The position numbers and the translations under genes are program-made. Source: an uncultured virus (IMG/VR IMGVR_UViG_3300030685_000002) (lineage: Duplodnaviria > Heunggongvirae > Uroviricota > Caudoviricetes). Taken from it: DNA of 64,000 nucleotides. The notes beneath the pieces are model-generated. The model was given only the letters and a program-made list of their open reading frames with translations, did not search any database and had not been told where the DNA came from. The stretch lies in IMG/VR virus record IMGVR_UViG_3300030685_000002; one strand, given 5' to 3'. Below are positions 3,837 to 53,300 of this stretch, one piece after another; position 1 is the first letter of the stretch; each line of letters opens with the position of its first letter.

Positions 3837-4183
3837 AGCTTTTTATATTTTTGTTTTGAAACTGTTTCTCCAGTTATTACATGCATACCAATAATTAATG
3901 ATAATGTAGAAAATACATCAGGGAAAATATTGATATCATGTAGTTTCATACAAATATTTATCTTTTCATCAATAAATTCTATACGTTCATCATTTTTCCA
4001 CACAAGAAAGAGATGATTGTATTCATCCATTTGTATGTATGCAACTTCTTTTTCTATGGTTTCAAAAAGGGCGCTTTGCTTCTCTCTGTTGAACTTAAAT
4101 ATGTAACCTAAGTAGTCAGCATAGAAATTCAATTTAGATAGCTCAAACGAGCTTAAATTTGGTTTTACTAATTTTGTTTTCAT
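3818..4183 (-). CDS. Hypothetical protein
   Basis: 121-aa ORF in the operon. Confidence 0.65.
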   Translation of the reverse strand: MKTKLVKPNLSSFELSKLNFYADYLGYIFKFNREKQSALFETIEKEVAYIQMDEYNHLFLVWKNDERIEFIDEKINICMKLHDINIFPDVFSTLSLIIGMHVITGETVSKQKYKKLCLHTL

Positions 4184-4207
4184 TTACGTTATGTTTTATG
4201 AAAGTGT

Positions 4208-4215
4208 TATCTTTG
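4208..4215 (+). promoter_or_regulatory. Bacteroidota sigma-70 -7 element (TATCTTTG)
   Basis: Matches TAnnTTTG, just upstream of ATG 4233 of a lone + strand gene. Confidence 0.65.
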
Positions 4216-4232
4216 TCGCAAATCATTATGAT

Positions 4233-4550
4233 ATGCTATTTACAAATAAGGAAATAAGTAAAAGAGTCCTGGCCAAAGTAAAAGAACAGGATCCAGTAAA
4301 TTTTAAATCTGTCACGCGTAACGATATAGAAAGACTACTGAACTATTATGGTCAAGTAATTTCCCATATCATTAAGCGTGGAGGTTTTCTTACATTATCA
4401 GTATACAAGACACACAAATTCAACCGGTGCATACGAATAGCTCCGATTGAAAGAAGAATAATCTACAAAGTGTTTCTTGAAAGATGTATAAGAAGAAATA
4501 TGATAATAACGAAAGCCATTAAGGAGAGAACTACCTTTTTGAACCAATAG
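4233..4550 (+). CDS. Basic protein, possibly HU/IHF-like DNA-binding
   Basis: Start moved to 4233, downstream of the promoter. KEISKRV...VTRNDIERLLNYYGQVISHIIKRGGFLTL resembles the HU/IHF helix-helix-strand pattern. Confidence 0.45.
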   Translation: MLFTNKEISKRVLAKVKEQDPVNFKSVTRNDIERLLNYYGQVISHIIKRGGFLTLSVYKTHKFNRCIRIAPIERRIIYKVFLERCIRRNMIITKAIKERTTFLNQ

Positions 4551-4932
4551 TTTTTTTATGAAACTCTTTTTCAAACTCTTCTTGTATTCGATCTTCGTCA
4601 TTTATACGACCATTGATAATAGCAAGCCAACAAAATAAATTATTTATAAGCACAATGACTTGCATAAAAGGTATAACATATAACTGGCATTCATCATCTG
4701 ATTCAATATAGAATAATAGGCTTGAAGCTTTATGTACACGTTTTAGTGCATAAGCAAGGCATATATTCAAAAGTACAATAGTTATCCAAAATAGGAATAG
4801 TACTGCCATCCATTGAATAGGTGAGAATAAGCCAAGAACATGATTATTGTTTGTTCGGAAATCATATTCAAGACCAAGGAACATACCGATAAACAAAATT
4901 ATCGACAATATGCTATAAATGAGATTTTTCAT
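4531..4932 (-). CDS. Membrane protein (about 3 TM)
   Basis: Three hydrophobic segments. Confidence 0.7.
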   Translation of the reverse strand: MKNLIYSILSIILFIGMFLGLEYDFRTNNNHVLGLFSPIQWMAVLFLFWITIVLLNICLAYALKRVHKASSLLFYIESDDECQLYVIPFMQVIVLINNLFCWLAIINGRINDEDRIQEEFEKEFHKKTIGSKR

Positions 4933-4933
4933 C

Positions 4934-5209
4934 TTAATTTACTTTTTTGAGATATACTAAGTTTGTGTTACTTACTGCAATCGCCGGCGGTTCACCAATA
5001 ACAAGTTCTTTAATCTTATATGGCAACGCAAGGTTATCGTCTTTCGGCTCAATAGAGTCTACTTGTAAGAAGTTTTTTGGATAAGATGGAGAAGAATATA
5101 CTTCACCAACTTTTAGTTCTTCTTTGGTATCATAAGAGTATCTACGCAACTCAATAGTTGGTACGATAGCTACCGGTTCTTTTACGAACAACATTTTTAT
5201 TGTTTTCAT
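4934..5209 (-). CDS. Hypothetical protein
   Basis: 91-aa ORF with operon spacing. Confidence 0.7.
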   Translation of the reverse strand: MKTIKMLFVKEPVAIVPTIELRRYSYDTKEELKVGEVYSSPSYPKNFLQVDSIEPKDDNLALPYKIKELVIGEPPAIAVSNTNLVYLKKVN

Positions 5210-9594: not shown

Positions 9595-9912
9595 TTACAT
9601 TGCTAGTACAATAGGAATATACTTTCTTACAGTATCAGCAAGTTGAGGTTTATTCTCAAGCTTAGTGACAAGCTGAGTACATGTAGTGGCACCAAATGTA
9701 TTCACAACGATTTGTAATGCCCTTAAAAGAGCATATCCTTCGGCTTCACTATTAATCACACATTGAATAACAAGCTCTTCATTACGTGGATAGTTTAGCA
9801 CTGGCTTAGTAGTAGCTGTACCAGCTAAAGGTTGATTACCGCCATCTATAGCTTCACTTGCAGGTACTTGTTTTACACCTAAATCTGCAATAGGTAATTT
9901 TTCATTTTCCAT
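9595..9912 (-). CDS. Hypothetical protein
   Basis: 105-aa ORF downstream of the CCCE module. Confidence 0.7.
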   Translation of the reverse strand: MENEKLPIADLGVKQVPASEAIDGGNQPLAGTATTKPVLNYPRNEELVIQCVINSEAEGYALLRALQIVVNTFGATTCTQLVTKLENKPQLADTVRKYIPIVLAM

Positions 9913-9936
9913 ATCAATATTATTTATAAATTAAAC

Positions 9937-9973
9937 AAAAAAAAGAGTTACAAAATTAATCATAACTCTTTTT
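9937..9973. terminator. Hairpin terminator with an embedded -7 promoter motif
   Basis: AAAAAGAGTTA...TAACTCTTTTT; the loop reads TAATTTTG on the minus strand (9958-9951). Confidence 0.6.
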
Positions 9974-9990
9974 ATATAGTACTACAAAGT

Positions 9991-10176
9991 TTATCCAATA
10001 CCAGGACATGTAAACATAGCCAATACTTCAGATTCAACTGGTATATATTGATCTATAATATCAGCAGTTGATTGACCTACATTTGTAGCTAAAAACTTTT
10101 TAATCATCATTCTTTCTTCTTGCCTAACAAGTTCTATAACTTTAATAAGAGGCAAATGCAATGTTATTTCTTCCAT
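9991..10176 (-). CDS. Small hypothetical protein (CCCE module)
   Basis: 61-aa ORF. Confidence 0.65.
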   Translation of the reverse strand: MEEITLHLPLIKVIELVRQEERMMIKKFLATNVGQSTADIIDQYIPVESEVLAMFTCPGIG

Positions 10177-10195
10177 TTTATTCTAATTTTAAAGG

Positions 10196-10474
10196 TTAGA
10201 CTCTGTTAGTTTCATAAATAGCTAATACACCGGCTGCAGCAGAACTTAATACATTGAATTGAGCAGTACTATTAGTACTGATGAATGCTTCATTAATTTC
10301 ACCTGCTGTTGGAATAGCTAACATGATTTCATAATTTAATGCTGTCGGAACAATTGGCGCTCTTGCTAAATAAAGAATAGTAGCACCAGTGTTCTGAAAC
10401 CTTACATCAACTCTATGTCTGTTTGCGGGTACTGCAACTATTGCAGTGGCTCCCACAGTTAATGGACTAGACAT
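10196..10474 (-). CDS. Small beta-sandwich-like protein (CCCE module)
   Basis: PANRHRVDVRFQNTGATILYL, all-beta pattern. Confidence 0.65.
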   Translation of the reverse strand: MSSPLTVGATAIVAVPANRHRVDVRFQNTGATILYLARAPIVPTALNYEIMLAIPTAGEINEAFISTNSTAQFNVLSSAAAGVLAIYETNRV

Positions 10475-10485
10475 GATTATAAGGA

Positions 10486-11229
10486 TTAAACTATTGTACT
10501 ACCAACCGTAGGAGTAATGTGATGCAAAATAGTACTCAACAAATACTGATTTTGTTCGTTGTTACTTACTTTACCATTTGCAGTAGCAAGTTGATCACGT
10601 AAATTTTGAACATTCAAATCATTGATAAGTGCGCGTGTTGCATTACCATCGGCAAGAATAGTACTCTTAATCTCACAACAGCATTGAGCCATTGCAGCTG
10701 CAGAAGCTGTACCTTGTGCTATGATTTGATTCGTAGCATTTTGTACTTGCATTGCTGAGCTATTGAAGCCTTGCAATGTAGTTGTGGTAAGGTTGTTGAA
10801 ACTGTTTAATTGTTGAAGAGCATTCTGATTTTGAGAAGCGGTAATATCTCTTCCCAATCCATTGATTGAATCCAAAGTAGTAAAATTAGCTGCAGCTTGA
10901 GCAGTTGCCAATTGTCCTATTTGTGTACCTACAGTACTAATACTTTGAGAAAGGTCAATAGTATCAGCACGAATTTGAGCTGTCAATGCTGTACCATTGA
11001 TTTGACCACCTAATGATTGTAATTGATTGTTGATAGCACCAAATTCAGCAACATTTGCATTATTGTTACCACCACCAAATAAACCACCATTACCATTACT
11101 TGCAAGAAGTGAACCAAGTACTAAACCTGCAACACCACCACCTACTGCTCCAAGACCTACTCCGGAACCCATTGAACTACCACCGCCTAATGAAGCAGCT
11201 GGCAACATACCGTCTAACGTTAAAGCCAT
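10486..11229 (-). CDS. Glycine-zipper membrane segment + long Asn/Gln coiled coil with CCCE motif
   Basis: GVGLGAVGGGVAGLVLGSLL ... AMAQCCCEIKSTILADGNATRALINDLNVQNLRDQL. Confidence 0.8.
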   Translation of the reverse strand: MALTLDGMLPAASLGGGSSMGSGVGLGAVGGGVAGLVLGSLLASNGNGGLFGGGNNNANVAEFGAINNQLQSLGGQINGTALTAQIRADTIDLSQSISTVGTQIGQLATAQAAANFTTLDSINGLGRDITASQNQNALQQLNSFNNLTTTTLQGFNSSAMQVQNATNQIIAQGTASAAAMAQCCCEIKSTILADGNATRALINDLNVQNLRDQLATANGKVSNNEQNQYLLSTILHHITPTVGSTIV

Positions 11230-11307: not shown

Positions 11308-11601
11308 TTATAGCTTTAGTTGTTTCTTTAATTCTAATGCTTTTTTTAAATCTGAAACATAATATGATTTTTCACGAAATCCTTTTACTTTACGTGGTTC
11401 AGGTATTATACCATAATCTTTTAATTCATGAAACCTAGTCAAAGATACTCCCATAAACTTAGCAGCATCTTCTCGACCCATTGTGGTAGGTCTATGAATG
11501 AGTATTGATATTTGTTCTAATTCTTCATTAGTCAAATCTTCGCATTCATTATTCTCTATCATTTTTAATACAATAGAAACAATCTTATTCAAATTTCTCA
11601 T
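11308..11601 (-). CDS. Excisionase/MerR-like HTH DNA-binding protein with N-terminal helical domain
   Basis: MGREDAAKFMGVSLTRFHELKDYGIIPEPRKVKG. Confidence 0.75.
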   Translation of the reverse strand: MRNLNKIVSIVLKMIENNECEDLTNEELEQISILIHRPTTMGREDAAKFMGVSLTRFHELKDYGIIPEPRKVKGFREKSYYVSDLKKALELKKQLKL

Positions 11602-18623: not shown

Positions 18624-21600
18624 ATGGATACTTTTGATATATTAGTAAATAATACTGGTGGTAATAACACCGAGGATATTAATGTAAAAGAATCAATTTT
18701 TGAATTGAATCTAAATAATGTTGTAGTTACTTATCAAGTAATAATTGATGAGTCTACACCACATTATGATATTGATGTTCATGATACTAAAATTTCATAC
18801 TTAATTGAACCTTCAAATATATTTTTTACTAGTGGTATCGGTGATGCTCCTGATGAACAAGTTTATGGTCGTAAAAATGGTCAATGGGTTTTATTACTTC
18901 CGGAACAAAATCTTCTTCTTGGTGAATTACATACTAATGCTTATTATGGTGACTTAGGTAAGATAGCTTATGACCATTCTCAGTCTACTGGTAACGTACA
19001 TGAATTATCATTCTCCGGTTTATTAAATAAGCCAACAACAGTCCAAGGTTATGGAATAACAAATATTCCTACTTGGGCTCTTTCTGTTTCTAAACCTTAT
19101 TATACAACTATCGAAGTGACTGAAGAAGATAATCTTTATTTTACTACTAATAGAGTTCTTGGAACTTACTTGAATGGGTATGTGGCAACAGATGGTAATG
19201 TAAACGCATCTGACACTGTTTTAAGCGCAATAGAGAAGCTTAGTTATAAAAACCATAATCCACTTACTTTGGGTTCTTCTAATGGCCTTACATTGGATGA
19301 ACAAGAATTATCTTTAGGACTTTCTTCTACAAATTCTACAGGTTCATTAAGTTTTACTGATTGGAATACTTTTAATAATAAATTATCAAGTTCATTGATG
19401 GGTGTTGCTAATGGATTAGCTACATTAGGAAGTGATACAAAAATTCCATTATCTCAAATACCAGTATCTTTATTGGGCCAAGTAAACTATAAAGGTTTAT
19501 GGGATGCGTCAACTGGATTACCATCATTACCATCAACCCCAACTTCAAATGGTGATTATTATATAGTATCTGTAGCCGGTTCTACTACTATGGGTTCAAT
19601 TAGTGAATGGAAAGTAGGAGATTGGTTGATAGCAAATGGTTCTGTATGGGGCAAGGTAGATAACACAGATGCAGTAAGTTCTGTAAATGGTTATGTAGGT
19701 ACTGTTGTATTAAATAAGTCTGATATAGGTCTTTCAAACGTCTCTAATGTATTACAATGGAGTACTGATAATCATCCAACAACAACAAGTGGTTATGGAC
19801 TTCCAAATTATCCTACTACTTTGCCGGCAAGTGATGTATATTTATGGGCTAAAGAATCAGTAAAACCATCTTATGTATGGACCGAAATTGGTAATCGTCC
19901 AACATTACTTTCTCAATTTTCCAATGATCTTGGTAATTATGGTAATTGGGTAGTAAATACTGATAGTAGATTAAGTGATTCTCGTATTGCATCAGATGTT
20001 TATAATTGGGCTAAAACTTCTACAAAACCTAGTTATACTTATTCAGAAATAACTTCTAAACCTACATTATTATCACAATTTACAAATGACTTAGGTAACT
20101 ATGGTGGATTTGTAACTGGTACTCCATGGACATTAGTTGGTTATTGGTATTCTTCCAATCATCCATCTACTTTATCTGGGTATGGGATAACTGATACTCC
20201 GTGGACTAATTATTTACCATTGTCTGGCGGACAAGAATCTGGCAATATTGGTTTTAATCAGGGGCTTGGCATTTCATTTGTAAATGGTGGATATCTTAAA
20301 AATAATTCAAATGGTCTTGGATTGAAATTGACAGCAGGGGCTAATAATTTGACATTTGAGAGCTACTCCACTATAGTTCAATCTAATTCTTTGTACCTTC
20401 AAAACTTAAACGGAAGTTCTGCACTAATATCCTTTCAAGGAACTCAAATAGGTGCAAAGGAATATAATATTAAAAACAGTATAGATGGTGTAAGTAATAT
20501 AGGATTTTCTATAAGAAACTATACCGATAGTACCACTCCTATGTACATTGATGGGTCTGACAATGTATTTTTTAAAAATTATGTAACTGCAACCCAATAT
20601 AAAGTATCTGGTGGAACTTCATCACAATTTCTTAAAGGTGATGGGAGTTTGGATAGTACTACATATCAACCATTAGGTAGCGCTATTAATACTGGTAATA
20701 TATCTGCTCAGAGTGTAAACTATGCAAACAGCGCAGGCAATTCTAATCAATGGGGAGGTTATCCTATAGATTTCAATCAAGCTGTTAATGTAAATAGATT
20801 GATTGCATGGGATGTATCTGATAATAAGTTTAGAGTTGCTGATAATTCTAGTATTAAATCTTGGTTAGGCTTAGGTTCATCGGCTTATACTAATACTAGT
20901 GCATTTCAACCTGCAATTACAGGACTTACAATAAACTACATTCCTAAATGGAATGGTAGCAATATGGTAAATAGTTTAATAAGTGATGATGGGTCAGACA
21001 ATGCATATTATTATATTGGAAACGCCAATCAAGGGGGTATTAATTTAAAAAGAAGTGGAGGAGCTGTATATGGTAAATTTGGTATTGAGCAATACGGAGT
21101 AAATAATGATACTTATATCGGTTCTTTTTCAAATAATGGGCTTGGGTTATACTCAACAGGAACTAAAAGATTATACATTCGAAATACTGGGGAAATAGAC
21201 ATACTTTCAACAACTCTCTCAACCTCACCTACCACAGGCGCATTAGTTGTTGATGGTGGTATTGGAGTTAGTGGTAGTGGCTATTTTAATGGTAATATTA
21301 CTGCTAGTAGTTTTATTAAATCAGGAGGAACATCTTCTCAATTATTACTAGCTGATGGGAGCGTTGTAAATATAAGTGCAATAGGAATAGATCAAACACA
21401 AACATCTATAAATGGATCAGTTAGTGGGACTGTTATTTGTTCTATGCCATTTCAGACAAATAGTTACAAAAAGGTAGTATTAAAAGGAAGCCCATTTGGT
21501 GGATCGGCTACATATACATTTCCAGTTGCATTTACTGCATTTGGACAACCATCATATTATATAACTGGCGCGATAACTATAACTTCACTCAGTTCTACTT

Positions 21601-21659
21601 CTATTACTATAAACGCAAGTTCAACATCAGCAGGATATGTTGTTTTAGAAGGGTATTAA
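18624..21659 (+). CDS. Tail fibre / receptor-binding protein
   Basis: Fibre motifs YGRKNGQW, KPTTVQGYGIT, GVANGLATL, VSSVNG..GTVVL, GGTSSQFLKGDGS. Confidence 0.85.
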   Translation: MDTFDILVNNTGGNNTEDINVKESIFELNLNNVVVTYQVIIDESTPHYDIDVHDTKISYLIEPSNIFFTSGIGDAPDEQVYGRKNGQWVLLLPEQNLLLGELHTNAYYGDLGKIAYDHSQSTGNVHELSFSGLLNKPTTVQGYGITNIPTWALSVSKPYYTTIEVTEEDNLYFTTNRVLGTYLNGYVATDGNVNASDTVLSAIEKLSYKNHNPLTLGSSNGLTLDEQELSLGLSSTNSTGSLSFTDWNTFNNKLSSSLMGVANGLATLGSDTKIPLSQIPVSLLGQVNYKGLWDASTGLPSLPSTPTSNGDYYIVSVAGSTTMGSISEWKVGDWLIANGSVWGKVDNTDAVSSVNGYVGTVVLNKSDIGLSNVSNVLQWSTDNHPTTTSGYGLPNYPTTLPASDVYLWAKESVKPSYVWTEIGNRPTLLSQFSNDLGNYGNWVVNTDSRLSDSRIASDVYNWAKTSTKPSYTYSEITSKPTLLSQFTNDLGNYGGFVTGTPWTLVGYWYSSNHPSTLSGYGITDTPWTNYLPLSGGQESGNIGFNQGLGISFVNGGYLKNNSNGLGLKLTAGANNLTFESYSTIVQSNSLYLQNLNGSSALISFQGTQIGAKEYNIKNSIDGVSNIGFSIRNYTDSTTPMYIDGSDNVFFKNYVTATQYKVSGGTSSQFLKGDGSLDSTTYQPLGSAINTGNISAQSVNYANSAGNSNQWGGYPIDFNQAVNVNRLIAWDVSDNKFRVADNSSIKSWLGLGSSAYTNTSAFQPAITGLTINYIPKWNGSNMVNSLISDDGSDNAYYYIGNANQGGINLKRSGGAVYGKFGIEQYGVNNDTYIGSFSNNGLGLYSTGTKRLYIRNTGEIDILSTTLSTSPTTGALVVDGGIGVSGSGYFNGNITASSFIKSGGTSSQLLLADGSVVNISAIGIDQTQTSINGSVSGTVICSMPFQTNSYKKVVLKGSPFGGSATYTFPVAFTAFGQPSYYITGAITITSLSSTSITINASSTSAGYVVLEGY
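19824..20105 (+). repeat. Two 40-aa internal fibre repeats (19824-19943, 19986-20105)
   Basis: PASDVYLWAKESVKPSY...PTLLSQFSNDLGNYG vs IASDVYNWAKTSTKPSY...PTLLSQFTNDLGNYG, 29/40 identical by hand. Confidence 0.9.
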
Positions 21660-21695
21660 ATAATTATAATAGAATAAATATAAAAATAAAAAGTT

Positions 21696-22121
21696 ATGAA
21701 AATTGGAGAAATTAGATCAAAGTTTTTTGAAATTAGTAATCTAATGAATATTTTTAATTCAAAAGGTATTGATAATACTGAATTGAATTGTCTTATTCTA
21801 GATAATTTTGAAATTCTTGAAAAAGAAAACAACAAAATTCAAAAAACGATTAGTCCTAGATTAATTGAATTTGAAAACAAATTTGTTGAGATGAATAAAG
21901 AAAATCAAATAAGCCGAGACAATGCTATTTTGTTATTATCTTTAGAAGAACAAAATGAATTTAAAGTTTTAAATGAAAAATTACAAAGTGATTTTGAGAT
22001 AGAACGAAAAATTTCATTAGTAGAGATTAAAGAATCAATAGTACGTTCTACAAAAGGAATACCTATGAATGCTTTAATTACTCTTAAATACTTTTCACAA
22101 GAAAAAAATTGGAAAAAATGA
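21696..22121 (+). CDS. Helical protein, possible fibre chaperone
   Basis: Position after the fibre gene; coiled-coil character. Confidence 0.55.
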   Translation: MKIGEIRSKFFEISNLMNIFNSKGIDNTELNCLILDNFEILEKENNKIQKTISPRLIEFENKFVEMNKENQISRDNAILLLSLEEQNEFKVLNEKLQSDFEIERKISLVEIKESIVRSTKGIPMNALITLKYFSQEKNWKK

Positions 22122-22219
22122 AAAAAGAAGACGACACTTTAAAAAAAGATGACAATCCAAGAACTGGAGGCGGAACTGGTGGTGGAACTAGACCTATTAC
22201 GACCGATGAACTTTATTAG
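22118..22219 (+). CDS. 33-aa peptide MKKEDDTLKKDDNPRTGGGTGGGTRPITTDELY
   Basis: ATGA overlap with the upstream stop; overlaps the start of the next membrane gene. Confidence 0.55.
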   Translation: MKKEDDTLKKDDNPRTGGGTGGGTRPITTDELY

Positions 22220-22586
22220 AATACACGTAGTTCTAACTAAGTATATTCCAATTATAATAAATTTATTTTTACTTTTTATTTATGTATTTTGGCATGAATC
22301 AAAAATAAGAGATATGTATTTATATATTGGATTTGGACAAAGTTTAATATATAATCTATATTTATTTTCAGCATCTTTATCATTTAGATTCTGTTTATGG
22401 CATAAAGTTTTAATATTAAATATGACTATTTGTTTAATTATAGAATATTTAAATAATAAAGGTTTATTTTTACCTGACATTTTTGATACTATTATTAAAT
22501 TGACTTTATTCTCTATTATATTATCTTCAATCTTATATTATAAAAATGGATGCTACAGTAAAAAAGACAATCATACGACTCTTTAA
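22206..22586 (+). CDS. 4-TM membrane protein with FRFCLWH motif
   Basis: Hydrophobic segments; start reassigned to MNFIRIH. Confidence 0.7.
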   Translation: MNFIRIHVVLTKYIPIIINLFLLFIYVFWHESKIRDMYLYIGFGQSLIYNLYLFSASLSFRFCLWHKVLILNMTICLIIEYLNNKGLFLPDIFDTIIKLTLFSIILSSILYYKNGCYSKKDNHTTL

Positions 22587-22725
22587 AAGAGTCATAAAAG
22601 CAATAGATAATGGAGTCTGTGACAATATGACAACAAAAGAAATAGATCATCTAATACGATTACTTGAAGAGTCTAAGAAAATTGACGAAACTTACATAAA
22701 AAGAAAACGATGGATAATATTTTAA
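22546..22725 (+). CDS. 59-aa HTH-less paralog of the 11308-11601 N-terminal domain
   Basis: MDATVKKTIIRLFKRVIKAIDNGVCDNMTTKEIDHLIRLL aligns without gaps to IVSIVLKMIENNECEDLTNEELEQISILI. Confidence 0.7.
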   Translation: MDATVKKTIIRLFKRVIKAIDNGVCDNMTTKEIDHLIRLLEESKKIDETYIKRKRWIIF

Positions 22726-23090
22726 TTGCCTTAATTGGCACTGGAGGAACACTTGGTGCTATTGGTGGAGTAATGAGTATTGTTTCTTACTTTTCTCCAT
22801 CTTCTATTAGCATTCGAAAAAGTAATGCTATTATCAAAGAAAATCAATCATGGGAGACTTCATTAAATCTTCTTCTTAAATGGAAATTAGAAGCAGAAAA
22901 AAAAATTGAAACTCTTGAATTGGATGTTGAAAAACTTTTAAAAAAAGATAGTCGTTCACAAAGACTTATTTCTGCTTATCGAATGATTGTAAGTTCTAAT
23001 AAAAGTTGTCAACATAACAAAGACAATACGGATAATTGTCCAGTAGCAATTAAAATGCGTGCTTTAGATATTGAAAACAAACAAGAATAA
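22710..23090 (+). CDS. Holin-like protein (N-terminal TM + coiled coil)
   Basis: Gly-rich TM, coiled coil, C-x8-CP; directly upstream of the endolysin. Confidence 0.5.
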   Translation: MDNILIALIGTGGTLGAIGGVMSIVSYFSPSSISIRKSNAIIKENQSWETSLNLLLKWKLEAEKKIETLELDVEKLLKKDSRSQRLISAYRMIVSSNKSCQHNKDNTDNCPVAIKMRALDIENKQE

Positions 23091-23092
23091 TT

Positions 23093-23563
23093 ATGGAAAG
23101 AGCAAATAAATTTATACCTAAAATACTTTTTGCAGAGGGTGGTAGTAAATATACTAATGACCCTAATGATTCGGGAGGTGAAACTAAATATGGTATTTCT
23201 AAAAAAGCATTTCCAAATCTAGATATTAAAAATCTAACAGAAGTACAAGCAATTGCAATTTATAAAAAACTGTATTGTGATCCTTGCAAGATAGATTTAA
23301 TCAAAGATGAATTTTTAGCTTTACATGTTTTTGATTTTGCAGTTACCTCTGGTGTCCATAGAGCAATAGAAGTTCTTCAATCAGTTATAGGAGTTTTAAC
23401 TGATGGAATTTTTGGTAATCAAACTCTTCAAAAAGTAAATTCTGGAAATTATCTCAATGCTTATAAGAATGCTCGTATAGCATTTTACACTAATATAGGT
23501 ATTGGCAAAAATGCAAAATTTAAAAAGGGATGGATTAATCGAGTAAACAATTTAAAACTATAA
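23093..23563 (+). CDS. Endolysin, glycoside hydrolase family 108
   Basis: EGG...NDPNDSGGETKYGI, FDFAVTSG, DGIFG, GWINRV. Confidence 0.92.
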   Translation: MERANKFIPKILFAEGGSKYTNDPNDSGGETKYGISKKAFPNLDIKNLTEVQAIAIYKKLYCDPCKIDLIKDEFLALHVFDFAVTSGVHRAIEVLQSVIGVLTDGIFGNQTLQKVNSGNYLNAYKNARIAFYTNIGIGKNAKFKKGWINRVNNLKL

Positions 23564-23731: not shown

Positions 23732-25021
23732 ATGAAATTCTATAAAAAACAAAATGGGAAATGGGTTATTGGCGACAATACTGGAATACCATCAGGTTCT
23801 TGTGTTGAAATTACCAATTCAATTACAGGAGCAATTACTATTGTAAAAGAAGAAGGTAATGGAAATTATGCAGATGGATTAATGCCAACAGAATTTCAAG
23901 ATATAAATGGAAATTATTATAGTGATTTATCAGCATATGAAACAGCGACATGTAGTTTTTTTGTTGATGCCTCCAGTAGTGGGGGCACAAGCAATGTTAT
24001 AGATATGAAACCGGGAGAATATCTTATCGATAAATTAGAATTATGTAGTGAAGCAACTGCTGAAAACCCAATTATCATAAATTTTTATAATCATTCAAAA
24101 ACTATAAATTGGAATTTATGGAAAGGTGAGATTCTATGGCCTGCTTATGTTTATATAAATTTTAAAGAAGATATAGATTGGTATCCAATGGGATTACGTA
24201 ATATATGTGAGAACTATGATGAAGGATTTACTATACGTAATCCTATGGATAAGATGTTTATGGGTATAGCATTTAATGCATACAGAGGACAAGAGTTTAA
24301 ATTAAAGTTTCCTTTACCTCTTAATTTGAATAGTGTATATTTTGGAGGATTAGATGAGGCTTATTTCACGGTAGCAGATTATGAAGAAATGTTGACAATT
24401 CCATGGGACAGACAATTAGGACCTTTTAATGTAATTCAATGTGGTGGAGACCGAAATGTTGATGGTCGTAATCGAATGCTTTATAAAAGAGTTGGTCAAG
24501 AATATGTTCCTATTGCACCTAATATTGTCAATCATAATCTAATAGGAGTAAAATTAATAGGGTCTTATATGAGATTCCTAATAATGAGAGATTGTGATTT
24601 ACAATCCGGAGATTTATCAGGAGCTGAAATGTCTTATTCCTATATTGAGAGATGTAGTTTCAAGTTTTCTAAGTTTGCTGAGACTAATTTTTCAAACGCT
24701 GTTGTTCAAGAATGTGATTTTACAGGTTCATATCTACGAGGTATGTTTGCTCCAAACGCATCATTTGAAAGAAGTCAATTTATGGATAGTGATCTATCTT
24801 ATGTTAACTTCGTTTCTGCTAATCTAACTAATGTTTTAATGAAAAACTGTAATCTAAATAATACCGACCTTAGGTCTGCTAACATTTGTGGAACAGACTT
24901 ACAAGGATGTTATAATTTATCTTCTGAAATAGGTACCAAGGCGATGCTTATAGGTGCTGTAGGTGAAGGACATTATGACACAGGCACTATTTGGATTGAT
25001 GGTACTTCTATATTAGTTTAA
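23732..25021 (+). CDS. Pentapeptide-repeat protein
   Basis: C-terminal CDLQS/GDLSG/AEMSY...SDLSY/VNFVS/ANLTN...TDLRS/ANICG/TDLQG. Confidence 0.85.
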   Translation: MKFYKKQNGKWVIGDNTGIPSGSCVEITNSITGAITIVKEEGNGNYADGLMPTEFQDINGNYYSDLSAYETATCSFFVDASSSGGTSNVIDMKPGEYLIDKLELCSEATAENPIIINFYNHSKTINWNLWKGEILWPAYVYINFKEDIDWYPMGLRNICENYDEGFTIRNPMDKMFMGIAFNAYRGQEFKLKFPLPLNLNSVYFGGLDEAYFTVADYEEMLTIPWDRQLGPFNVIQCGGDRNVDGRNRMLYKRVGQEYVPIAPNIVNHNLIGVKLIGSYMRFLIMRDCDLQSGDLSGAEMSYSYIERCSFKFSKFAETNFSNAVVQECDFTGSYLRGMFAPNASFERSQFMDSDLSYVNFVSANLTNVLMKNCNLNNTDLRSANICGTDLQGCYNLSSEIGTKAMLIGAVGEGHYDTGTIWIDGTSILV

Positions 25022-25048: not shown

Positions 25049-25270
25049 ATGAAAACAAGAACTTCTTACAAACGCAAATCATGGAAAACATCACTATTCG
25101 GAATTGTCTGTTTAGTAAATGTGTTTATATGTTTATTTTTAGTCTATCTAAAAACAATTACTATTACTGACACTGGTCAATATTTAGTAATCTCTACTCC
25201 TATCATTCTTGGTATTGGTAAGTTCTTTGATAAAGATAGTGATGTCACCGGAGGGACTAGAGAAGTATGA
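25049..25270 (+). CDS. Holin-like 2-TM protein
   Basis: SWKTSLFG, two TM helices, then ...KD. Confidence 0.6.
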   Translation: MKTRTSYKRKSWKTSLFGIVCLVNVFICLFLVYLKTITITDTGQYLVISTPIILGIGKFFDKDSDVTGGTREV

Positions 25271-25908
25271 TACAATTTATAAAGAAAAACTTGGTAATAA
25301 GCGCGATAATAACTATCGTGCTTTTACTGTTTATTGGTGGTGTGGTAAAATCATGTCAATCAAAACAGGCAAAAACATTGATTACAAAACAAGATGTATC
25401 ATCTGCATATCGTGATGGCTTTAATACAGCTTCTAGTAACTATCGTAAGCAATCAATTAAGTCGATTGATAGTATCAATGCTTTACGAAAAAAGGATCGT
25501 TTAGAATCAAGTAAAACGCTTTCTAATTATAAAGATAAAAATGTAGTTTTATCAAAAAAGATAAGTAAGTTTGAAAATGATTATAATACAGATACTACAA
25601 AGCATACTTTAGCGAATTGTGATAGTCTTTTAGTATTGAAAAATATATCACTGCAGCAGAAAGATACTATTATAAAAACTACTGAAAAGAAATTAATTAG
25701 TACTGAACTTAGTTTGACTGATGCTACTAAAAAATACTTCTTACAAACAGAGGAAACAGAACAATGTAAAAATGAAAATCTTATATTACAAAAAGAAAAG
25801 AAAGATTTGACTACTGCATTAAAACGTTCAACTGGTTGGTGGAGTAAAAATAATATTTGGTTCTATTTGGGCGCCGGTGCAATTGGAGGATATTTTATAG
25901 CAAAATAA
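25267..25908 (+). CDS. Spanin-like protein
   Basis: N-terminal hydrophobic helix ending VKSC, long coiled coil, C-terminal hydrophobic tail. Confidence 0.55.
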   Translation: MIQFIKKNLVISAIITIVLLLFIGGVVKSCQSKQAKTLITKQDVSSAYRDGFNTASSNYRKQSIKSIDSINALRKKDRLESSKTLSNYKDKNVVLSKKISKFENDYNTDTTKHTLANCDSLLVLKNISLQQKDTIIKTTEKKLISTELSLTDATKKYFLQTEETEQCKNENLILQKEKKDLTTALKRSTGWWSKNNIWFYLGAGAIGGYFIAK

Positions 25909-47336: not shown

Positions 47337-50300
47337 ATGGCTAACCAAGAACAAGAACAAACACAACCAGTAGTACCAACACTTGAAGAAAAATATCAAG
47401 CACAGTCTAGTGATGCATTTGTAGATCAAGAAGGAAATTATCAAGGAACAGTTGATGTAGTTGGAGATGCTTTAAAGAATAAGCAATCCACTGCAGATAT
47501 ACTTACCTCTATGGCGCATTCTGAACAGCCTATTTTCAACGATGTAAACTATTATGTAGACAAGTATTCAAAAGAAAAAAATCCTCTTGATACAGACGCT
47601 ATACCAGCAAGTCAAATAGTAAAAACTTATAATCAAGCAAAAATACAAAATGCTAAGAAAGTAAGTTTAAATAAACGTGGTGTTGATTTGGCCGCATTAA
47701 AATTTCAGAATGATGTACAATCACCGGAAGTAAGTGGTCGTTCAATGTCTGATAAGTATCTTGGCAATGTAAAAGACCTTACACCTTCTTATGCACCTTA
47801 TCATGATATTTTTCGTAATGAAGATAATGAACGTGGTACCGGTGAAGAACGTGCTTCTGCTGCTCCATATATTTTAAAGAATGGTAAACGTATTCCTAAC
47901 CCAGGTAAGGATGGAATGGATAAAATGTTTGGTGATGGTAAAGCAGTTGTAACAACTACTATTGACCCTACTAATGGACGTGAAGTATTTGATGTACTAC
48001 CATCAGATGCTTTTGTTGCAGGAGATAGACAGTATTCAACTAAGTGGGGTCCAAAAGAAACATTCGGTAGTTCTATTAAAGATTTCTTTGTAGGAGCTTA
48101 CAGTGCTGCAACCGCCGGTACTATGAGTTCCTTTTCTTCTGTTGGTGCTCTTTTTAATAATGCAATGAATCATGATGAAACTTATCTTTATAAACAAGGT
48201 AATGAAGCCATTCAAAAGCATTATGATAAGGTACGTGCTGCTAACCTAGCGCAAGGTAATACAAAAGCTGTAGAAGAACTTGATAAAGCATTTGAATCAG
48301 GAGATTATACCGCCATGAATCAAGCATTCAATTATTCTTATAGTTCACTTCCATCCAATGTAGGTAATTCATTACGTAGAGAAGCACAACCATTGAATTG
48401 GGCGAAAGGTGACAAAGCACTACAAGATTATTTCAATGAATGGAAACAAGCAGAGTTTAAACAATCAGCATCAACAGAACAAGGAACTGGTGCTATTGAT
48501 TGGATGGTACGTCAAGCTCCGACACTTGGTTATCTTCTTCCTCAGATAGCTGTAGGTATGGCTTCGGGTGGTGCTATGTCCGCATTAGAAGGAACTGCTG
48601 CATTTGCCGGTAAAAGTGTTGCAACAAAAGCTTTGCAGTATGGTACTGAGTTTCTAGTAAATGCTATTGGTACTTCACAGTCTTATAGTTCATTTCAACG
48701 TGTAGCTGATGAAAATGGTGTTAGTCCGGAAACAACTGCTAAATTTGGATTCTTTGCTTTACCATTGACATACGTTACTGAACATTTTACAAATAAATGG
48801 ATTGGTGAACAACTAGGACCAAACATTGCTGAAAAGGCTATGAGAGAAATCTATGCTCCAATGGCTCAAAAATTAGCTGCTAAAGAAGCTGCCGGTACAC
48901 TTACTGACAAGACTATTAAAGAAGCTGTTTACGATAGTTTCTCTAAGATATACAATAGCAAATTCATTAAAGGTATTGTTGACAATGAAAGTTATCTTGC
49001 TAATGTAGCCAAAGCAAATGTTAGTGAAGTCTTTCAAGAAAATTTTGAGCAAGCATTATACAATACTGTTCAAATGCAAGTTGATAAAGCTGCTCCAGCA
49101 TATTCCGAAGTTGGTAATGGACAGATAGGTACTACTGGTGTATTTGAAGGATTTTCAGATACTTCTTTAGGAACCATATTTGCTACTACTTTAATGACTG
49201 CTATTACTGGTGCTGTTCCTCACGTAATCAAAAAGATTAAAGGTATTCCCGACAGTAAAACAGAAACTCAACAAAAAGAATTACTGAAATGGAAAGTTCT
49301 GAAAGGCCAAGGTGATGAACTTATCAATATAGCTACTGATCATATTCAGAAACCTGATGGTGGTATGTGGGGAGTGAAAGATATCCTTATCAAAGATGCT
49401 ACTGTAGGAGAACAATTTGATCCAAGTTTATTCTCAGTACCTAAGAGTCCATCTCTACAAAAATTGGGATATCAAGAGGGACAATTAATCGACAACTTCG
49501 CTGAAATGAGGTATGTCGAATTTGTGCAATTAGTGGACTCGTATAAAGAGTTGAATGAAAGTATGGGGTTGAATGATGTTGATAGAAACATTCTTTCTCA
49601 GGCTGGATTTGATGGTCAGATATCATTAAACAAATCTGGTCAAGCTTTCATGGATATGCGCGATAGTAAAGCTGCTATTGAATCATTTCAACCAAAAGAA
49701 GCAGGTGCTACTGCTACTGATGAACAGATTGCTCAACTTCAAAAAGAAAATGAAGAAGCTAAGCAACCATTAGTTGATAAGTATAATAAAGCTTTATCTG
49801 AATACGAGTATTATACTAAACGTGAAGAGGGAACTCAAAACTCTAAAGCGGCCAATGACTTGATGAAACGTAACGTTACCGTTATGAAACAAGTTGAAAT
49901 GGAAATGCAAGCTCTTACTAACTCAAAAGAGTTTACTCGGGAGATGAAAAACGATCCTAACTTCCAACGTCAATATGCTGCATCATGGGAGAATGTAATT
50001 AAGAAGAACTTTACGTATGAAAACATTGAGAACTTACGTCAACGTGTAGATGAAGCTGCACAAGCTCAACAGACACATGCTAATGCCATTATTAATGATA
50101 TAGATAACCAAACTACTCATGCAACATTATCGAGTGATTTAAATGCCTTACAACAACGAATAGGTGATACTCTTTCAAAACCGTATAATGAAGCTGAGCA
50201 TAAATCATTGATTACTGATGTTGCCGGATTGTCTAATCGTTTAGCTAAAGAATTATCTGTATTCAATGACCAAACAAGTGGAAATGTATTTGGTACTACA

Positions 50301-53300
50301 ATGGATAATAGTAAACTTGATGAACTTAAAAATAAGTTTTCATCAATGTATGATGCTGCAAAAGGACTTACTTCTAATATCGCTCAGCAAGCAGAAGGTA
50401 AGATTCTTACTCCGGCCAATGAAAAAATTGATATGTATGGTAAACGTGTTGCTGAATTGGAACCATTCATTACTACTAAACAATCTGAATATGATGCTCA
50501 ATTAGAAACTATCAATTCTTTACCGGCGGAAACCAGCGATGAACAACGTCAACAAGAAACTGATAAGCTAAATGCTATTCAACAAGAATTGAAACATTAT
50601 CAAGATGAAAGTCAAACTGCTGCAGAAGAAGTAGGAAAAGCCGAACGTACAATTGAAAGTTTTGATGATGAACAATTCTCTCATGATAATCAGTTGAATG
50701 CTGCTGCACGCGCGCTGGGACTTGAAAACGTAAATAATCAATACTCTTCATTTAATGGGAAAGGTAAACTTCCATTTATGCGTATTGATGGACAGACATT
50801 AGAACATGCTAATGAAACTCCGGAACAATTTCAAAAACGTATTAAACTAATGCGTGAACAGAATACTCCAAATGGTAAAACATTTTTGAGTAATTACTTC
50901 ACAGAATTACAAGATACGATGAAAGAAGCTGAGGTATGGATTAATTCAGTTCTTACTGACCAGGGAGAAACTTATAAGAAAGAATATCCTGATGGTAAAT
51001 TTTATGGTACTAATGGTTCTGAAATCATTCGTCAAGAGATTGATAGAGTAAAAAAGAATGAACATTTCCTTTATACTTTCAAGACTTCTGAACGTATTGC
51101 TAATGAAAAGAAAGTAAGTGATCATCAGTCACAACCGGAACGTGAATTTGTTTCTGAATTGGCAAGTAAAAATGCTAATGGTAACAATACCTATGAGATT
51201 CAATTACGTGATGCTATACGTATGGCTGATGAACTTGCAAGTAAGATTGATGGTGCTGACTTGGCCAATCAAATGTTACGTTTGCATAGTCGTGTTATCA
51301 TTCATGAGAATACATTCAAGAGTGTTCAATTATTTACTACTCTTGGATTACGTCGTTCTGATGGCACGCAAATAATCAGTCAGAACTTAATTGAAGAATT
51401 AAATGCTATTGGAGAACTTGATCCATCTATTCTTGATGCAAAAGGACAACTTACCGAAGCACAACTTACTCAGTTATCTAAAAGAGAGAATATCGTAAAC
51501 AATATCCTTTCTGAAATGAATGTCGAATATAATAAAGAAAATTCTGAATTATTTTCTAAGGACAATCAAGATTTGTTGTTTGAGATATTCCGTGAGTTTT
51601 ATGTTGCCAATGATTCTATTGGAGAAGATGGAAAAGTACTTAATTCAGAAGGTACTCTTTTACATGCTGATGATTCATCTTCACATATTGGAGAGAATGG
51701 TTCATTGACAAATTCTACTCGTGAACTACATGCCCGTAATCCATTATTTACTATGGAGAATGTTGGTGGTGTTTCCAAACGTAAATACAATTTTTCCAGT
51801 TCTAATGCAAATGATATTACCCGACTGCGCGAACACTTGAACACGCTTATCTGGATAGGTAGTAAATACAGTATGAACGATATGTTCAAGATACGAAAAA
51901 TGATATTTACTAATGAGTCAAATACACCATTAGAAACGGGAGAACAAGAAGCTGCAATCAATTCAATAGTTGGACTTTTAAGCAATAAAACGCTTACAAG
52001 TCCTTTGTCGTTATTTGCAAATTACTTTTTACCTATGCATTCAATAGCTACTGAGAAGGGTGGCCATCACTTCATAGAAAGCTATCTAAGCAATGCATTG
52101 ACTATTGGTGGAGATTATGGTACTGGAAAGACTCAGTTCACTGTAGGAAGAGCATTTAGAATACTTCGCGGACTTGATGGATATAGTACTGATAAGAAAT
52201 CATCAGTAGGTAAACTAACAGTAGTAAGTATTACGGAAGAACTTTCTAAGGTACATAAACAATCTTTTGGTGCTGAAAATCCAACAGTAATATCATATAC
52301 TGATTTTATCAAAGGAATGAAGAGTATGAATACTACAGAAGGAAATACTTATGTTATTGATGAAGCATCACTTGTTTCTGAAAATGAAATGAAAGCTATC
52401 AAAGAACATTTTGTAAATACAAAAGCCAAATTAGTATTCATGGGTGATGTATTCCAAATGCGTGATGCAGGTTCTGTAGGTCATTATCCTTTGATGATGT
52501 TGCAGACAATGACTACGCACATGCTTACTGAACAATTTAGTGCTACTTCTCCATTACTTCGTCAACTTGCAGAAGCATGTCGCCCGGCTATTGGTGCCAT
52601 TGGTAGAATAGTAAAGTTTGATAAGGTGACAGAAGATATAAGTGGTAAGACTAAATTAGGAGCGCGTTTCTTTGCATCACACATGGATGTATGGAACTCG
52701 TTCATAGATGGTCTTGCTACCAATCCGGATAGAGCAGCTATTTTCTTAGATCAGGATGCACTGGATGCGTTTACTAAAGACAATGATACACTTAAAAAAC
52801 AAATAGAAGCAAATAAGGATAAAATCTATTTTGCTTTACGTCGCGGTGTCAATGATAATAAACTACTGCAAGGATTACGTCAGAAAGAAATCTATGCTGT
52901 ATTCAGACAGTCTGATAGTAGTCAGATAGCAAAACCTATTACTACAAGTTTAATGGCCTCAGCACTTTATACTGCTATTGGTCGTTCTAGCTCTTGGTAT
53001 GGTATGGTTGGTGATACTTCTTTGAATGTTGACCGTTCTCTTGCTGCATCTACTGGTTTACCGGAAGAAGCATTGAATGCTATTCAGCTACAACAAAAGG
53101 AAAAATTCAGAGCTATTGAAACATTGCGTTTACAGGGTTTAAATACTGATATGAATAGTATGAGTATGGAAGCACAGAAAGTGGCAACAGCACCTATTGC
53201 TAACCCTACAGTGACCACTCCAAACCCTAGTAATAATAATCAGAATCAAACTTCGGGTAAAGAGGTAGGATTAAAGATTAATTACTTTAATGCTGATGGT

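Follow-up and report, generated by a model that had tools for sequence, protein, structure and literature searches.

A conserved phage module of a small ORF, a four-helix membrane protein and an HTH-less regulator paralog, encoded next to an endolysin gene

This study concerns three overlapping genes in a 64,000-nucleotide (nt) stretch of DNA, hereafter the window, from an uncultured virus of the Caudoviricetes (IMG/VR record IMGVR_UViG_3300030685_000002). The genes lie on the + strand, 3' of the gene for a 1011-amino-acid (aa) fibre, and encode a 33-aa product (the small open reading frame, or small ORF), a membrane protein with four transmembrane (TM) helices (4TM) and a 59-aa cytoplasmic protein. 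The window is a phage contig with a guanine-plus-cytosine content of ~32%. Portal and major head protein genes are encoded in it, and its large terminase shares 27-29% identity with terminases of crAss-like phages (Bacteroides, Flavobacterium, Cellulophaga). A sequence-only reading of this DNA had placed the three overlapping ORFs, with the motif FRFCLWH in the membrane protein, at 22118-22725, and we found them there as claimed. That reading had allowed for their being unconserved; all three are kept in related contigs. On sequence grounds, all three are genuine genes, and together they make up a conserved phage module.

The HTH-less paralog and its membrane partner

The sequence-only reading had also aligned the 59-aa protein, without gaps, to the N-terminal domain (N-domain) of a helix-turn-helix (HTH) protein encoded elsewhere in the window at 11308-11601, with 8 of 29 residues identical. 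The alignment is exact: the identities are V, K, I, N, C, T, E and L, residues 11-39 of the 59-aa protein face residues 6-34 of the HTH protein, and none of 1000 shuffles reached the score. BLASTP aligned the two proteins with 7/21 identities and 16/21 positives at a pairwise E of 7e-5. We also compared profiles of the short form (the N-domain without HTH; 8 sequences) and the long form (N-domain plus HTH; 19 sequences), which hhalign matched over 40 columns with a probability of 97.3% and an E of 2.6e-11. A six-frame scan of the window with the long-form profile returned the HTH gene (1.5e-45) and the 59-aa ORF (6.3e-7), the next match being at 1.7, and the same profile recovered short forms in four other phage records (E 9e-7 to 2e-4). 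The paralogy is significant by shuffles, BLASTP, hhalign and six-frame scan alike, and by these comparisons the 59-aa protein is paralogous to the first ~40 residues of the 11308-11601 protein and lacks its HTH.

The 59-aa protein matches only columns 1-40 of the long-form profile and ends 19 residues further on. The winged-helix DNA-binding domain (HTH_17/MerR-excisionase) of the long form is not present in it, so that the alignments describe it as the N-domain alone with a short tail of its own. This N-domain reads as a helix, a D-N-G-x-C-D-N-h-T loop and a second helix. The AlphaFold2 (AF2) model of the long form (predicted local distance difference test, pLDDT, 81.8) contains the same arrangement, with helices 2-16 and 25-35 at a pLDDT of 65-74 joined by an N-N-E-C-E-D-L-T loop; its winged HTH (wHTH) part exceeds 90. 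The best Foldseek matches of the wHTH part are of the MerR type, namely HiNmlR (5d90), RacA (5i44) and RdfS (8dgl), with a probability of ~1.0 and an E of ~0.02 over about 58 columns. The C-terminal 55-60 residues of the long form thus share the fold of the MerR/excisionase proteins, whereas the 59-aa protein, being N-domain only, is not a member of that group. The N-domain of ~40 residues itself gave no match to MerR/excisionase-type structures. Pfam HTH_17 (PF12728) was reached by 3 of the 19 long-form members, the window's own protein not among them. In two gut-type loci (L037, 3820-4108; L048, 3826-4111), a frameshift splits the long form into ORFs of 65/58 aa and 46/45 aa.

The membrane protein belongs to an unnamed but large family. 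Searching 1.84 billion proteins with a profile of six relatives, we obtained 179 representative clusters at E<=1e-3 and 62 at E<=1e-10. P15 is invariant, G44, S57, C63, W65 and H66 are nearly so, and the consensus motifs are K..P, G.S and F.FC.WHR.LI. The AF2 model (pLDDT 88.8, predicted TM-score 0.81) has helices at 3-27, 47-59, 64-84 and 92-114. The distribution of Lys and Arg predicts an N-in/C-in topology, in which the N-terminus, the F.FC.WHR loop and the charged C-tail (YYKNGCYSKKDNHTTL) would all be cytoplasmic. A six-frame profile scan found a single copy in the window.

Neither the 4TM protein nor its 61-member alignment matched a credible family in Pfam, PHROG, NCBIfam or PADLOC; one of the 61 members gave a weak LrgB-like match (0.0027). 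With the 4TM model, Foldseek returned nothing from the Protein Data Bank (PDB) at E<=0.001, a wider PDB fold search returned generic helical bundles only (Z<=7.5), and the ESM Atlas returned viral hypothetical clusters only (score 0.89). The best viral fold matches were all uncharacterized proteins, and the first among them was a BFVD model from the uncultured crAss-like phage cr106_1 (probability 1.0, E 0.01, TM-score 0.63-0.72). Among deposited phages there was no nucleotide match, and tblastn found only csAssE-Sib (OR575929.1); the 4TM relatives of both cr106_1 and csAssE-Sib are annotated as hypothetical only. No relative turned up when bacterial genomes were scanned with one 4TM pattern. 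Two variants of the protein were seen. Five family members of 259-289 aa (P0082, P0093, P0105, P0121, P0126) consist of two tandem 4TM units, that is, eight helices. In locus L071, codon 14 of the 4TM gene is TAG in place of TGG (W to stop) in an otherwise intact gene, which may reflect a nonsense variant, recoding of the stop codon or an error of assembly.

How constantly do the membrane protein and the N-domain occur together? We retrieved 51 viral loci by the 4TM protein alone, of which 33 were distinct; many of these are close relatives, making about 15 lineages, and many come from one metagenome group. An N-domain ORF accompanied the 4TM gene in 33/33 distinct loci, as the short form in 8 and the long form in 25, and in 31 of the 33 it started -82 to +2 nt from the 4TM stop. 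In L024, the 4TM gene is separated from the long-form gene by an inserted IS605-type TnpB/OrfB gene (3888-5033). In L066, 4TM and N-domain plus HTH form one 234-aa ORF. Such 4TM-N-domain-HTH fusions occur in L066/L068 and in L069, via two different indels at the same poly-A run, and L071 and L073, of the same lineage, have two overlapping ORFs. 4TM and the N-domain protein are therefore an obligate, co-encoded pair that tolerates covalent fusion. Defined as a 4TM gene with F.FC.WH followed by an overlapping gene with an h-D-x-G-x-C-x-N-h-T hairpin, the module is present in the window at 22206-22586 and 22546-22725.

The fusion lineage also shows how poly-A indels at gene junctions toggle neighbours between fused and separate states: an A8-A9 run ~350-365 nt into the 4TM gene does so for 4TM and the long form (L068/L069/L071/L073). 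The A9 run of L071 would permit a -1 slip giving the fused frame.

A Zn or disulfide site between the 4TM Cys/His and the N-domain Cys is not supported. In several members Ser, Phe or some other residue takes the place of the N-domain Cys, and the 'GC' of the 4TM tail is dual-coded with the ATG of the next gene and missing in several lineages.

Transfer of the module and its genomic surroundings

The distribution of the module across phages indicates that it is mobile. Between the window and an unrelated 63.5-kb phage (G002), nucleotide homology runs from 22118, the ATG of the small ORF, to within the gene of the TM and coiled-coil (TM-CC) protein that follows the 59-aa gene, and the flanks are unrelated. 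Judged by these borders, the four genes travel together, as one block, between unrelated phages with different endolysins. A second kind of exchange was seen in peat metagenomes, where two unitigs coexisted in 4/4 runs (contigs only). The first is identical to the window across 22009-22725. The second matches 22009-22115 and 22546-22725 and carries 456 other letters in place of 22116-22545, so that the replaced block is exactly the small ORF and the 4TM gene, to the first base of the 59-aa gene. We call this second version allele B; its contig depth in the peat runs is roughly 2-4x that of the window allele. The 4TM proteins of the two alleles share 30% identity; for the 141-aa protein encoded upstream of the small ORF, the 59-aa protein and the TM-CC protein, the figures are 78%, 95% and 91%.

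The sequence-only reading had proposed that the trio could couple a signal either to lysis timing or to the operon of the Gly-rich CCCE protein, which the long form heads in the window. Adjacency of the membrane, HTH and CCCE genes in other genomes, which it had set beforehand as a test, was indeed found (L038, L043/L044, L046, L097): the order in these crAss-like contigs is small ORF, 4TM, N-domain plus HTH, CCCE homolog, and then the same small genes as in the window. In the window itself, the genes after the HTH gene (9595-11229, - strand) encode the CCCE protein of 247 aa (phrog_9288, with relatives phrog_8119 and phrog_16490) and proteins of 92, 61 and 105 aa, a set syntenic with L044, L046, L093 and L097. 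Long-form loci retrieved by the long form itself had a 4TM gene upstream in four lineages and none in five, including that of the window. Two phages separate the loci completely. G002 (92% complete) carries the small ORF, 4TM, short form, TM-CC and endolysin and lacks both the long form and the CCCE gene; in G007 (90.9 kb, terminal repeats, 100% complete), it is the long form and the CCCE operon that are present, and 4TM and the short form that are missing. Because one carries only the trio and the other only HTH and CCCE, the two loci of the window are independent and neither requires the other, although both are present in the nearest record (G001, complete) and in a complete allele-B genome (G003). 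The proposed coupling of the two loci did not hold in this respect.

The features of the region are collected in Table 1. From the 141-aa ORF to TM-CC, successive genes overlap by 4, 14, 41 and 16 nt, the 41-nt overlap lying between the 4TM gene and the start of the 59-aa gene, and a 2-nt gap leads on to the endolysin. The 141-aa ORF, for which no family was found in Pfam or PHROG, is 78% identical to residues 1-141 of a 169-aa ORF of allele B, which reads on in frame through the small-ORF segment.

Table 1. Coordinates of the module, its neighbours and the paralogous locus in the window
Feature	Position	Strand	Remarks
141-aa ORF	21696..22121	+	context; its TGA shares bases with the small-ORF ATG
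33-aa small ORF	22118..22219	+	acidic N-half, PRTGGGTGGGTRP core; end lies 14 nt within the 4TM gene
126-aa four-helix membrane protein (4TM)	22206..22586	+	contains FRFCLWH; unnamed phage family
59-aa cytoplasmic protein	22546..22725	+	N-domain of the long HTH form without HTH
126-aa TM-CC protein	22710..23090	+	N-terminal Gly-rich TM helix, coiled coil, C-terminal C-x(4-9)-C-P
Endolysin	23093..23563	+	GH108 2.4e-19 and PG_binding_3 1.8e-9 (Pfam); phrog_315 6.4e-41
Pentapeptide-repeat gene	23732-25021		between endolysin and 2-TM/spanin-like genes; Pfam 5.9e-21
73-aa two-TM protein	25049..25270	+	second holin-like candidate
213-aa spanin-like protein	25267..25908	+	hydrophobic helices at N- and C-terminus
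97-aa long form	11308..11601	-	N-domain and MerR/excisionase-type winged HTH
247-aa Gly-rich CCCE protein	10486..11229	-	first gene after the long form

The surroundings of the short form are constant in one respect: short form, TM-CC and endolysin follow one another in all eight short-form loci. The endolysins of these loci belong to three families, phrog_315 (GH108 type), phrog_181 and phrog_7. L038 and L046 carry genes for an endolysin and a 1-TM protein immediately ahead of a long-form trio. In the alignment of TM-CC (A8), C100, C110 and P111 are invariant; that TM-CC might be a short CCCE homolog was rejected at an hhalign probability of 0.3%. A homolog of the 73-aa two-TM protein, which has no family match, stands directly after the endolysin in L013 and L028, and the L028 homolog of the 213-aa protein gave a weak match to phrog_1152 (Rz-like spanin, 3e-4). 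In csAssE-Sib, the same trio of small ORF, 4TM and long form (hypothetical proteins WOZ57278-80) stands after a BACON fibre gene, and the gene that follows it is annotated as a 'ring protein' and is neither a lysis nor a CCCE gene. Another IS605-type TnpB/OrfB lies a few genes downstream of that trio (L075, 8487-9626).

The 33-aa small ORF

The small-ORF product, MKKEDDTLKKDDNPRTGGGTGGGTRPITTDELY, shows no signal peptide, no hydrophobic or TM segment and no Cys. Copies of the region are identical or 99.5% identical on four IMG/VR contigs, and all 9 differences in the 99.5% copy sit inside the endolysin gene. To look for selection on the peptide, we compared the window with L005, a more distant locus with a 4TM identity of 69%. 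In the peptide frame, the PRTGGGTGGGTRP core carries 6 synonymous changes and 1 conservative non-synonymous change (ratio of non-synonymous to synonymous changes per site, pN/pS, 0.07), and in the other two frames the same core has 0 synonymous changes against 7 and 5 non-synonymous ones. Within allele B (L015 vs L014), the last 14 peptide codons, KSPDSGGATFPPSK, have 4 synonymous and 0 non-synonymous changes, and the N-terminal half varies freely. The membrane ORF could also be read from 22149, as 145 aa, but this is unlikely, since the substitutions in the added stretch are silent for the peptide and not for the 145-aa frame.

The ATG of the small ORF is invariant in 5/5 aligned loci and marks a breakpoint of homology. 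Nucleotide homology between the window and L005 starts there, and the upstream-gene homology of the window and allele B stops there. What lies upstream differs. The small ORF of the window shares the bases ATGA with the stop codon before it. Two upstream genes run on into the small ORF in frame, namely the 141-aa homolog of L015 and L014, for a total of 169 aa, and an unrelated gene of L005 for a 111-aa two-TM protein. The small ORF of L013 is separate, behind an in-frame TAA. At the junction of the 141-aa ORF and the peptide (window 22100-22121 vs allele B), an indel in a poly-A run again switches the two between separate and fused forms. A programmed -1 frameshift from the 141-aa ORF into the peptide is not supported, as there is only A6 after G and no canonical slippery heptamer.

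Across the family, the position of the small ORF is conserved and its sequence class is not. An ATG-initiated ORF of 20-80 aa ending <=30 nt from the 4TM start was present in 30/33 distinct loci, compared with 55/177 control ORFs (other ORFs of >=100 aa within the same 33 loci); 3 of those 30 were counted via an off-frame ORF only, the peptide there being fused to the upstream gene. The sequences fall into three classes. The acidic class, with P-[RTKD]-[TGS]-G-G-[GSA], comprises the window, L020, L022, L027, L040, L047 and allele B; the basic class comprises the L023 group, L063, L066 and csAssE-Sib, where the ORF is annotated as a coding sequence; and the Pro-rich class comprises L038, L046 and L043.

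The sequence-only reading made the peptide part of a candidate communication or sensing system, but nothing marks it for export as a secreted signal. We lean to reading the small ORF as a leader or coupling element that acts in cis, and not as a free ligand, because throughout the family it keeps its place at the 4TM start but not its sequence class, because in-frame fusion to two unrelated upstream ORFs is tolerated, and because constraint is concentrated in the Gly/Pro-rich stretch of the C-terminal half. The 33-aa ORF is probably translated, and on this view its translation and termination at the 4TM start would set the amount of 4TM.

Possible roles of the module

Putting the pieces together, we tentatively favour, with less than even confidence, a lysis-timing module in which the 59-aa protein docks on 4TM. 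A lysis-timing role is favoured because the HTH-less form is found only beside endolysins (8/8), because the four-gene block was co-transferred into an unrelated phage with a different endolysin, and because the near-gapless gene chain leads into the endolysin. Obligate co-encoding and tolerated fusion suggest a docking role for the N-domain on the cytoplasmic side of 4TM; we propose that it would dock its bearer at the conserved F.FC.WHR loop or at the C-tail. The HTH-less pair and TM-CC may form a lysis-timing unit, the membrane proteins acting as holin/antiholin-type components and the 59-aa protein as their cytoplasmic modulator, much like RIII with the holin of T4. The full-length paralog, the HTH gene at 11308-11601, heads the CCCE operon and, on this reading, works independently of the cassette.

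Known lysis systems offer both likeness and difference. T4 lysis involves the T holin, RI and the cytoplasmic RIII (PMC8385771). The window resembles T4 cassettes in encoding small membrane proteins and a small cytoplasmic protein beside the endolysin, and it resembles holin/antiholin cassettes generally in that the endolysin is swapped mosaically and the membrane genes stay, and in gene overlaps that suggest tight co-expression. 4TM itself has some general marks of a holin, being a small membrane protein (126 aa) with at least one TM helix (four) and a charged C-tail predicted to be cytoplasmic, and its gene stands in an endolysin cassette in all short-form loci; in the gut-type long-form loci looked at, it does not stand beside an endolysin. 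Unlike the named holins and antiholins, the module has no sequence or fold similarity to any of them, and its lysis role is a proposal; also unlike their cassettes, the 4TM/N-domain pair elsewhere bears an HTH and lies away from endolysins.

Several further points weigh against this reading. No holin family in Pfam, PHROGs or NCBIfam matches 4TM or TM-CC, and a more canonical 2-TM holin-like gene adjoins the spanin-like gene, so that 4TM need not be a holin. In the gut group (L023-type loci and csAssE-Sib), the trio adjoins structural or antirepressor genes, and no endolysin was seen near it among the neighbours scanned, which were not all of them (gene families were scanned in selected loci). 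L062, L064 and L066 have another small multi-TM gene just upstream of the trio. The case for N-domain docking on 4TM comes from gene order and one fusion lineage only, and the conservation of the 4TM C-tail and the short-form C-end may be partly dual coding with the start of the next gene. For the peptide, the selection signal consists of few substitutions (7 and 4), and the whole allele-B peptide has a pN/pS of about 0.56, not below the other two frames.

A first alternative, which sharpens the idea of the sequence-only reading, is that 4TM serves as an anchor in the membrane and, by way of the shared N-domain, keeps the HTH protein sequestered there. The 59-aa paralog would then compete for the anchor or form inactive heterodimers, setting the time at which the CCCE operon is switched. 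HTH-less TraR-like anti-activators are an analogue of such a decoy. The window holds both forms with one shared N-domain, the 4TM, HTH and CCCE genes adjoin in other phages, and there are natural 4TM-HTH fusions with an HTH domain of MerR/excisionase-like type. Another analogue is the membrane sequestration of an HTH repressor, SdpR, by SdpI (PMC2910880). Like that pair, the 4TM family has a multi-pass membrane protein gene beside a small HTH gene, and both the fusion and the obligate adjacency suggest membrane tethering. Unlike it, the 4TM family has no SdpI homology (no Pfam match), its HTH is of the MerR/excisionase rather than the ArsR type, the adjacent partner in the window has no HTH at all, and no secreted ligand is evident in the module. 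The separate survival of the short trio in G002 and of HTH plus CCCE in G007 speaks against the decoy, as does the confinement of the short form to endolysin cassettes. We consider this alternative unlikely, and the constant place of the HTH-less form in the lysis cassette disfavours coupling to the CCCE operon, one of the two outputs originally suggested, and points to lysis timing instead.

Less likely still, in our judgement, is that the module has an accessory role at the membrane that concerns neither lysis nor CCCE, such as superinfection exclusion or wHTH tethering of phage DNA; the place near the lysis genes would then be the usual moron hot-spot between tail-fibre and lysis genes. RacA and phi29 p16.7 are known to tether DNA to the membrane, and RacA also came up among the top fold matches for the HTH domain. 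In many loci the trio follows tail-fibre or BACON genes. The swap of the small ORF and 4TM as one block between coexisting strains in all four peat runs, with 4TM alleles only 30% identical next to flanking genes at 78-95%, would also suit an accessory gene, and another moron, the pentapeptide-repeat gene, sits in the same region of the window. On the other hand, the overlapping or abutting chain into the endolysin and the co-transfer of the block with different endolysins suggest a shared lysis function, and PADLOC gave no match. A combined scheme appears to us quite improbable: the trio would be a membrane switch in which 4TM holds a MerR-type protein by the 40-residue hairpin and HTH-less copies compete, linking membrane or lysis state to late transcription, and the peptide would be the specificity element of each 4TM allele. 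If it were true, the two peptide-plus-4TM alleles that coexist in peat would behave like pherotypes.

Highly improbable is peptide communication, with the 33-aa product as signal, 4TM as processor, exporter or receptor and the N-domain proteins as output: the purifying selection on the peptide core, the replacement of peptide and 4TM as pherotype-like allelic pairs coexisting in one habitat and the nearly invariant Cys/His pair of 4TM, a pair that the AgrB peptidase also has, would fit it, but the peptide lacks a signal peptide, TM segment and Cys, is fused in frame to unrelated upstream ORFs in 2/4 contexts and varies in sequence class across the family, the N-domain has only ~40 residues, there is no receptor-type domain (TPR, histidine kinase), and, unlike arbitrium-type systems, the module shows no export signal, no TPR/kinase receptor and no Pfam or PADLOC match.

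For crAss-like phages and other phages of Bacteroidota, next to nothing has been charted of lysis control or late regulation. Among lysis genes, passages of a Crassvirales review (PMC10136315) mention only spanins and lysins, and keyword searches of the literature found nothing on the module and no mention of csAssE-Sib. Against this background, an unnamed but widespread family with an obligate partner offers natural experiments in HTH loss, in fusion to the membrane protein and in allele replacement between coexisting strains. If the lysis-timing reading is right and the pair times lysis, a major phage group would have a new system of the holin/antiholin type; if instead the pair tethers a regulator, it would be a new membrane-to-transcription link in phages. 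Either reading provides names and testable partners for genes annotated as hypothetical.

Other features of the window were noted in passing. The Bacteroidota-type promoter TTTG-N17-21-TANNTTTG has 5 matches where 3.84 are expected, 0 of them close to the cassette, and an Rfam scan of 21500-23300 returned no credible match. The pentapeptide-repeat gene inside the lysis region, on the + strand like its neighbours, is present in the window and L014 and absent in L013 and L028, where the 2-TM and spanin-like genes come straight after the endolysin; it resembles a moron insertion. At 47337-63998, one uninterrupted ORF of at least 5554 aa continues past the end of the window and encodes a giant protein of this crAss-like phage.

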